The notes under the pieces were generated by a model. The model saw only the letters and a list, made by a program, of their open reading frames with translations, ran no database searches and was not told where the DNA came from. Of a stretch of 635 nucleotides of DNA, positions 1 through 635 are shown in pieces. The position numbers and the translations under genes are program-made. The stretch is taken from NCBI RefSeq assembly GCF_003334255.1, contig NZ_QOWU01000206.1. One strand, written 5' to 3'. Position 1 is the first letter of the stretch; each line of letters begins with the position of its first letter. Origin of the DNA: Escherichia coli. Lineage in GTDB: Bacteria; Pseudomonadota; Gammaproteobacteria; Enterobacterales; Enterobacteriaceae.

Positions 1-635
1 GTTCTGGCATCGAAGTCTATGGCTTTCCCCAGCTCAACGATTGTGCGTACATCGCGATCGTTGTAGTAACGCCACGGGCAGGGGATCCCCTGCCGTTCGT
101 ATGAACGGCGCAAAATCGTGTTGTCGAAGTTGGCTCCATTTCCCCAAACCTGAACAAAAAATTCACCGGAGTTTTCGTCGATAAATTCTCGCAATTGTAA
201 CAGTGCATCATCTAACGGGATTTCATCGGTCATAATGGCAGATTGCGCTTCGCGTGATTGCTTAAGCCACCATTTAATGGTGTCCCGATCAATGACTCCG
301 CCAGCAGTTTCCAGATCGATAGTCTTACTAAATTCCGGTCCCATATCTCCGGTTTGCGGATCGAAAAATATTGCACCTATTGAGATGATCGGGGCATCAG
401 GATTTTTTCCCATGGTTTCAAGGTCAATCATCAGATGGTGCCACAACCTGCTGGTGGATGTGATAACGTGATGACCGTTCACCGTAATTAAGGGATCTGC
501 CGTCTCGCCAGTTTCACTATCGCTGGCGTGATCCTGAGCGCTGCCAGCATTCTCCTTGTGTGGATGTTCAGCGCCTTCCATTTCCTCCGGATCATCTTCC
601 TGAACTTCAACCTGATACTCTTCATCGAATGTTTC
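1..635 (-). CDS. Partial CDS (5' and 3' ends outside window): acidic low-complexity segment followed by a DnaQ-like DEDD-family 3'-5' exonuclease domain; possibly part of a prophage RecE/exodeoxyribonuclease VIII-like protein (hypothesis)
   Basis: Hand translation of the minus strand in the frame whose codons occupy 635..633 down to 5..3 gives 211 sense codons with no stop. The other two minus frames contain stops (e.g. TAA at 488..490 in the +1 frame). Exo I-like motif MIDLETMG is encoded by 408..431 (D-x-E-T-x-G). Exo II-like motif WGNGANFD is encoded by 123..146 (N-x-x-F-D, cf. RNase T/epsilon H-N-A-x-F-D). The hydrophobic strand [10 protein letters not shown] after Exo I fits the DnaQ fold. 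No good Shine-Dalgarno precedes either in-frame ATG (429..431 and 579..581), consistent with the true start lying beyond 635. Family assignment is from motif recognition only; no search was run. Confidence 0.85.
77..94. repeat. Perfect 18-bp palindrome GGCAGGGGATCCCCTGCC (contains GGATCC and a central GATC) inside the CDS; function unassigned
   Basis: Base-by-base check: positions 77..94 equal their own reverse complement (9 of 9 pairs); symmetry breaks at 76/95. The chance of a 9-pair perfect palindrome somewhere in about 630 positions is roughly 0.002 for random sequence. It encodes R-Q-G-I-P-C-P on the minus strand. No downstream T-tract, so it is not a terminator. Confidence 0.5.

Follow-up and report, generated by a model that had tools for sequence, protein, structure and literature searches.

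A perfect 18-bp palindrome in an Escherichia coli prophage exonuclease gene is very probably a chance consequence of the coding sequence

The stretch of E. coli DNA analysed here, 635 nucleotides in length and referred to below as the window, lies within a single gene: minus-strand frame 0 alone is open across all 635 bases, and the window shares 99.7% identity with part of a CDS of E. coli 99RCEF (WP_439402590.1, 823 aa). In that strain the gene belongs to a lambdoid prophage beside yccA; it lies downstream of dicB and of cI/cro-like genes and is followed directly, in the same orientation, by a DUF4224 gene and an integrase gene. A match to the window is carried by 4713 of 5426 complete E. 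coli genomes. The features of the window are as follows.

1–635, minus strand: internal fragment (residues 576–786) of an 823-aa prophage exonuclease gene, assigned from the open frame, the 99.7% identity, Pfam and PHROG
1–440, minus strand: part of the C-terminal Rv2179c-like 3'-5' exonuclease domain (PF16473 match)
77–94, no strand: perfect 18-bp palindrome, P1, which on the coding (minus) strand comprises positions 2 and 3 of an Arg codon, the Gln, Gly, Ile, Pro and Cys codons, and position 1 of a Pro codon (residues 756–762 of the 823-aa protein)
92–109, no strand: near-palindrome, P2 (GCCGTTCGTATGAACGGC), with eight of nine pairs, encoding part of R-R-S-Y-E-R-Q

The 823-aa protein matched PHROG 2082 (‘exonuclease’) from end to end, and the full length of the PF16473 (Rv2179c-like) model, positions 1–177 of 177, was aligned to residues 641–813 with an E-value of 5.5e-67. 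The DEDDh motifs are readily found in the translation, MIDLETMG and WGNGANFD inside the window and HNALDDA just downstream of it. Judged from these matches, the host gene is a widespread E. coli lambdoid-prophage gene for a predicted exonuclease with a DEDDh-type, Rv2179c-like domain. The match to the whole Pfam model is a likeness that concerns the gene and not the palindrome; the host protein differs from the family in that the domain is fused to an N-terminal region of approximately 640 aa (residues 1–640; locus L001 5889–8360, minus strand), with a weak, partial match of the RecE/exodeoxyribonuclease VIII model to residues 229–626 (285 bits vs. a cut-off of 1269). In the N-terminal region, shortly before the part covered by the window, there is a CxxC...CxxC motif (CTACGQTGGGNCPDCG), and in phage PhiR47 the exonuclease domain is a stand-alone protein of 190 aa. 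The peptide encoded at P1, R756-Q-G-I-P-C-P762, is located between the WGNGANFD (Exo II) motif and a conserved C-P-W block, and the alignment with the nearest solved relative by sequence, PDB 8KEL (‘Exodeoxyribonuclease’, E 6.5e-8), has gaps exactly at this loop.

P1 (GGCAGGGGATCCCCTGCC) is its own reverse complement over 18 bp, with GGATCC, and within it GATC, at the centre; the symmetry stops at the flanking G76 and G95, and no further perfect palindrome in the window exceeds 8 bp. A preliminary description of this DNA, which had reported a perfectly self-complementary 18-mer with a GGATCC centre inside a coding region specifying R-Q-G-I-P-C-P, is confirmed on each of these points, the reading frame being on the minus strand. 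The same description considered such a palindrome unlikely by chance in a window of this size, and this too was borne out: mononucleotide shuffling of the window produced a perfect palindrome of 18 bp or longer in 31 of 20 000 trials (0.16%), and shuffling of synonymous codons, with the protein kept, did so in 60 of 5000 (1.2%). Yet simple arithmetic on the scale of a genome of approximately 5 Mb (5.1e6 centres × 4^-9) gives an expectation of about 20 palindromes of at least 18 bp, so that P1 is unusual for a single window and unremarkable for a genome scan. Besides P1, about twelve different perfect palindromes of this length or longer were seen in the approximately 0.95 Mb of distinct sequence that we collected.

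Much of the symmetry follows from the protein sequence. The coding strand reads Arg CGG, Gln CAG, Gly GGG, Ile ATC, Pro CCC, Cys TGC and Pro CCG, the palindrome taking the last two bases of the first codon and the first base of the last, and its centre lies within the Ile codon, directly after the first base. Because the symmetry is centred in this way, six of the nine pairs form automatically, all of them joining first and second codon positions: one between Arg position 2 and Pro position 1, two between the CA of Gln and the TG of Cys, two between the GG of Gly and the CC of Pro, and one between the A and T of Ile. The three pairs left to chance are all wobble–wobble (Arg3–Cys3, Gln3–Pro3 and Gly3–Ile3), and with the gene's own codon usage their joint probability of being complementary is 0.11 × 0.15 × 0.22, or approximately 0.004. 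Three of the codons concerned are minor ones in the gene (CGG, 10%; GGG, 17%; CCC, 11%), which counts against an explanation by chance.

A second dyad overlaps the first by three bases (GCC). P2 has the same anatomy as P1, with six pairs fixed by R-R-S-Y-E-R-Q (given CGN for Arg and TCN for Ser) and three wobble–wobble pairs, and a single synonymous change, G99 to A (Tyr TAC to TAT), turns it into a perfect 18-mer with a CATATG centre, a form that was present in 46 of the collected loci. The common change of CGG to CGA breaks one pair in each of P1 and P2. In random sequence an overlapping pair of the P1 and P2 type would be expected about 0.1 times per genome, a rough estimate made before any coding constraint is taken into account; the figure counts against chance, and the occurrence of the two side by side is somewhat unexpected.

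The conservation of P1 was first examined in the 80 loci closest by protein similarity, comprising 60 unique sequences, a set too shallow to decide the matter. P1 was kept in 56, with synonymous breaks in three (GGG to GGA in two and CCC to CCA in one), and third-position diversity was 0.027 in P1 compared with 0.020–0.032 in neighbouring 30-bp bins. A set selected by exact match to P1 is biased and was left out of the conservation estimates. We therefore rely on two flank-anchored scans in which the sampling was independent of the palindrome, one blind to P1 and the other blind to both P1 and P2. The scan blind to P1 gave 97 newly fetched loci, of which 63 were perfect, three were compensated (GACAGGGGATCCCCTGTC) and 31 were broken; 23 earlier-collected loci among the 120 listed matches, probably enriched for perfect P1, were not counted, and the broken fraction is accordingly between 26% (31/120) and 32% (31/97). 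In 21 of the 31 broken loci R-Q-G-I-P-C-P was retained and the changes were synonymous only (CGA, GGT, GGA, GGC, ATA), the remaining ten having amino-acid changes (G to E, P to T, I to L, I to S). The scan blind to both palindromes listed 80 loci; 52 belonged to the family of the window (40 perfect, one compensated and 11 broken, with five keeping the peptide yet breaking P1), and 26 belonged to a sister family encoding RGAYERAGQICP, in which one of the nine P1 pairs is present and P2 is absent. Overall, in these palindrome-blind samples, P1 was broken in 21–32% of close relatives. The preliminary description had stated that homologues conserving the peptide while freely varying the synonymous positions would indicate no selection on the palindrome, and this is what was found, in 21 of 97 and five of 52 loci.

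In the sample blind to both palindromes, diversity at the wobble sites of P1 (0.094) was below that elsewhere (0.202), and Gln3 and Pro3 were invariant in the samples; elsewhere, 22% of stretches of six successive wobble sites were as low as P1 or lower, which places P1 below the local mean and within the normal range. Covariation was not found at either dyad. The palindrome-blind sample contained 22 distinct sequences, in which 64.1% of P1 cells were paired compared with 61.5% in shuffles (score 0.057 vs. 0.067). For P2 the values were 72.7% and 71.3% (0.053 vs. 0.053).

The compensated variant GACAGGGGATCCCCTGTC combines CGA for Arg with TGT for Cys, both synonymous, and is again a perfect palindrome; it occurs in locus L355 and two others. 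It may have arisen just once, or through a quasi-palindrome template switch. Mutation by quasi-palindrome correction is an established process in E. coli, and if template switching during replication had repeatedly ‘corrected’ two adjacent imperfect inverted repeats, the symmetry would be non-functional without being pure chance. Such a process would explain both why TAC and TAT interchange in the middle of P2 and why CGA and TGT occur together in P1, and it fits the presence of two overlapping near-perfect 18-mers, the coexistence of perfect and eight-of-nine forms of P2, and the finding of TGT on a CGA background only, in three unique contexts. However, this one apparent compensated event stands against many uncompensated ones (CGA with TGC in 16 loci; GGT, GGA and GGC without a matching change at Ile), and the TAC/TAT polymorphism is also seen in the non-palindromic sister family. 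We regard template switching as a very improbable source of the symmetry.

Beyond the close relatives P1 is largely lost. In 58 homologues (one genome per species, from Enterobacterales to Bacteroidota) and in phages Evi and PhiR47, this peptide is variable, and between zero and six of the nine pairs are present; all nine were kept, within the cross-species set, only in the E. albertii copy and in one near-identical MAG contig, and outside the clade R-Q-G-I-P-C-P is not conserved. P1 is kept in L002, an Stx2a phage of 81% identity. This phage is almost identical to the window over positions 1–175 and about 30% different thereafter, and we rejected its retention of P1 as a sign of selection because the near-identical shared block points to mosaic exchange.

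The preliminary description had suggested that, as RNA, the palindrome could form a 7-bp stem with a GAUC tetraloop, possibly acting as a translational pause or RNase site. RNAfold did predict this hairpin, in both the minimum-free-energy and the centroid structures; a 78-nt RNA folded with −28.4 kcal/mol (z = −2.8, better than 199 of 200 shuffles), in a region that was chosen because of the palindrome, and a 200-nt segment gave z = −2.25. Searches for a recognized element were negative: Rfam 15 gave no match at E ≤ 1 on either strand, there was no terminator-like site in L001 5400–6700 and no U-run after the stem (the sequence there is CGUGGCGUUAC), and no promoter-like site was found near P1. 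A known RNA family, a terminator and an internal promoter for xis/int were rejected on this basis. P1 resembles intrinsic terminators and lambda sib in being a G+C-rich hairpin in a leftward phage transcript close to xis/int, but it differs in having no U-run and a stem of only 7–9 bp, in its place within an ORF ahead of xis/int and not past int, and in its lack of conservation.

A lineage-specific mRNA hairpin, possibly alternating with a P2 hairpin, might nevertheless modulate translation or mRNA decay, from a position towards the 3' end of the exonuclease gene and ahead of the xis-like and int genes in the same transcript. The predicted fold with its z-scores, the position of the gene directly upstream of the DUF4224 and integrase genes on the same strand, and the one compensated variant are what this proposal has in its favour. 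Set against it, P1 and P2 show no covariation, the hairpin is broken in 21–32% of close relatives, often synonymously, neither the sister family nor other genera possess it, and it has no Rfam match. In addition, RNase III substrates need a stem of roughly 20 bp, far above that available here, and stems of this kind are unwound by translating ribosomes. Thus, of the properties looked for in a conserved cis-acting RNA, a stable fold was present, whereas maintained or compensated pairs and an Rfam match were absent. With neither conservation, covariation, an Rfam match nor a terminator, the proposal of a pause or RNase hairpin is unsupported, and we consider a regulatory hairpin improbable.

The palindrome had also been put forward as a DNA-level target, namely an operator-like sequence bound by a dimeric protein of phage or host, or a site of restriction-modification or Dam control through GGATCC/GATC, and a perfect dyad with a central GATC is indeed what such a target might look like. 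The window contains nine GATC sites (at 56, 84, 287, 314, 359, 387, 494, 530 and 590), approximately 3.6 times the random expectation. The high count is explained by the Asp- and Ile-rich protein sequence, because codon shuffles that kept the protein gave 7.25 ± 1.65 sites (P = 0.22), and we therefore rejected the cluster of nine in 635 nt as a Dam/SeqA feature. Natural variants, moreover, destroy the central GATC/GGATCC, giving GGTATCC, GGAATCC, GGATACC or GGATTCC, so that the site is lost through GGT, GGA and ATA codons as well as in the GGATTCC form. The dyad is broken by synonymous variants, no promoter was found nearby, and P1 occurs as a single coding copy in each prophage.

This last point rests on scans for further copies. 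An exact-match scan of viral contigs placed P1 at the same position in 120 of 120 listed matches, none of the at least 120 matches listed lying outside the homologous gene; no second copy was found in the 12.6-kb prophage locus, and a literature search for the 18-mer found nothing. The search for other copies that the preliminary description had proposed thus gave, among the viral contigs, at least 120 listed copies, each of them in the homologous gene and one per prophage. A dispersed repeat of the REP type, with many, mostly intergenic copies, was rejected on the same evidence: P1 shares with REP/BIME repeats a G+C-rich dyad of similar size, but those repeats are multi-copy and intergenic, whereas P1 is single-copy and coding, with each sampled copy in one gene. 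A dimeric-protein or restriction-modification target is thus unsupported by the lack of conservation, of repetition and of a nearby promoter-like site and by a GATC count explained by the protein, and we hold such a role to be extremely improbable.

The explanation that we favour is that P1 is, very probably, a chance and lineage-specific consequence of the coding sequence with no function of its own. P1 lies in a variable loop of the exonuclease domain, where the peptide supplies six pairs and only the three wobble–wobble pairs had to match by chance, and the palindrome decays at about the neutral synonymous rate; we infer that it is neither bound nor cleaved in vivo. The preliminary description had kept as its fallback a coincidental by-product of the R-Q-G-I-P-C-P codons, and it is this suggestion that the data support, six of the nine pairs being fixed by the peptide and relatives breaking the symmetry synonymously. 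P1 behaves as do other chance coding palindromes (built from Gln/Cys, Gly/Pro and Arg/Pro pairs and self-paired Ile): it is a single in-frame copy, it owes two thirds of its symmetry to the peptide, conservation does not extend past near-identical relatives, and synonymous variants break it. It is slightly unusual in overlapping the near-palindrome P2, and otherwise there is no substantive difference.

The two adjacent dyads and the single compensated variant leave a small probability for alternative hairpins or template-switch mutation, although neither gains evidence from one compensated event set against many without compensation. It is improbable that the dyads at 77–94 and 92–109 together constitute a lineage-specific alternative-hairpin switch in the leftward transcript, tuning expression of the exonuclease or of the downstream xis/int, or a self-regenerating template-switch hotspot; even if correct, this minority reading would amount to a minor regulatory detail of one prophage gene, restricted to one clade.

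The result for P1 itself matters little beyond removing a false lead, but it illustrates a general trap in sequence scans. If the centre of a palindrome separates the first from the second position of a codon, two thirds of its symmetry come at no cost from complementary pairs of residues (Gln/Cys, Gly/Pro, Ser/Glu, Arg/Arg, and Ile or Tyr paired with itself). The apparent conservation of P1 among E. coli prophages arises because the copies are recent, near-identical mosaic relatives, and it reflects shared ancestry and mosaic exchange rather than selection.

Divergence among the prophage copies is block-wise (L002, L004, L109, L157 and others), a pattern typical of mosaic lambdoid prophages, here with junctions within the exonuclease domain, and the homology of the L002 protein to the product of the window's gene ends at about window position 1. 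Two further copies of the gene carry unexpected taxonomic labels: L207 (SFGN01000167.1, a ‘Lachnospiraceae bacterium’ MAG) is 87% identical in protein and L221 (CACSKA010000005.1, ‘Chryseobacterium sp. 18061’) is 58% identical. These identities are comparable with those of enterobacterial copies, and both contigs are probably mis-binned or contaminating enterobacterial prophage DNA.
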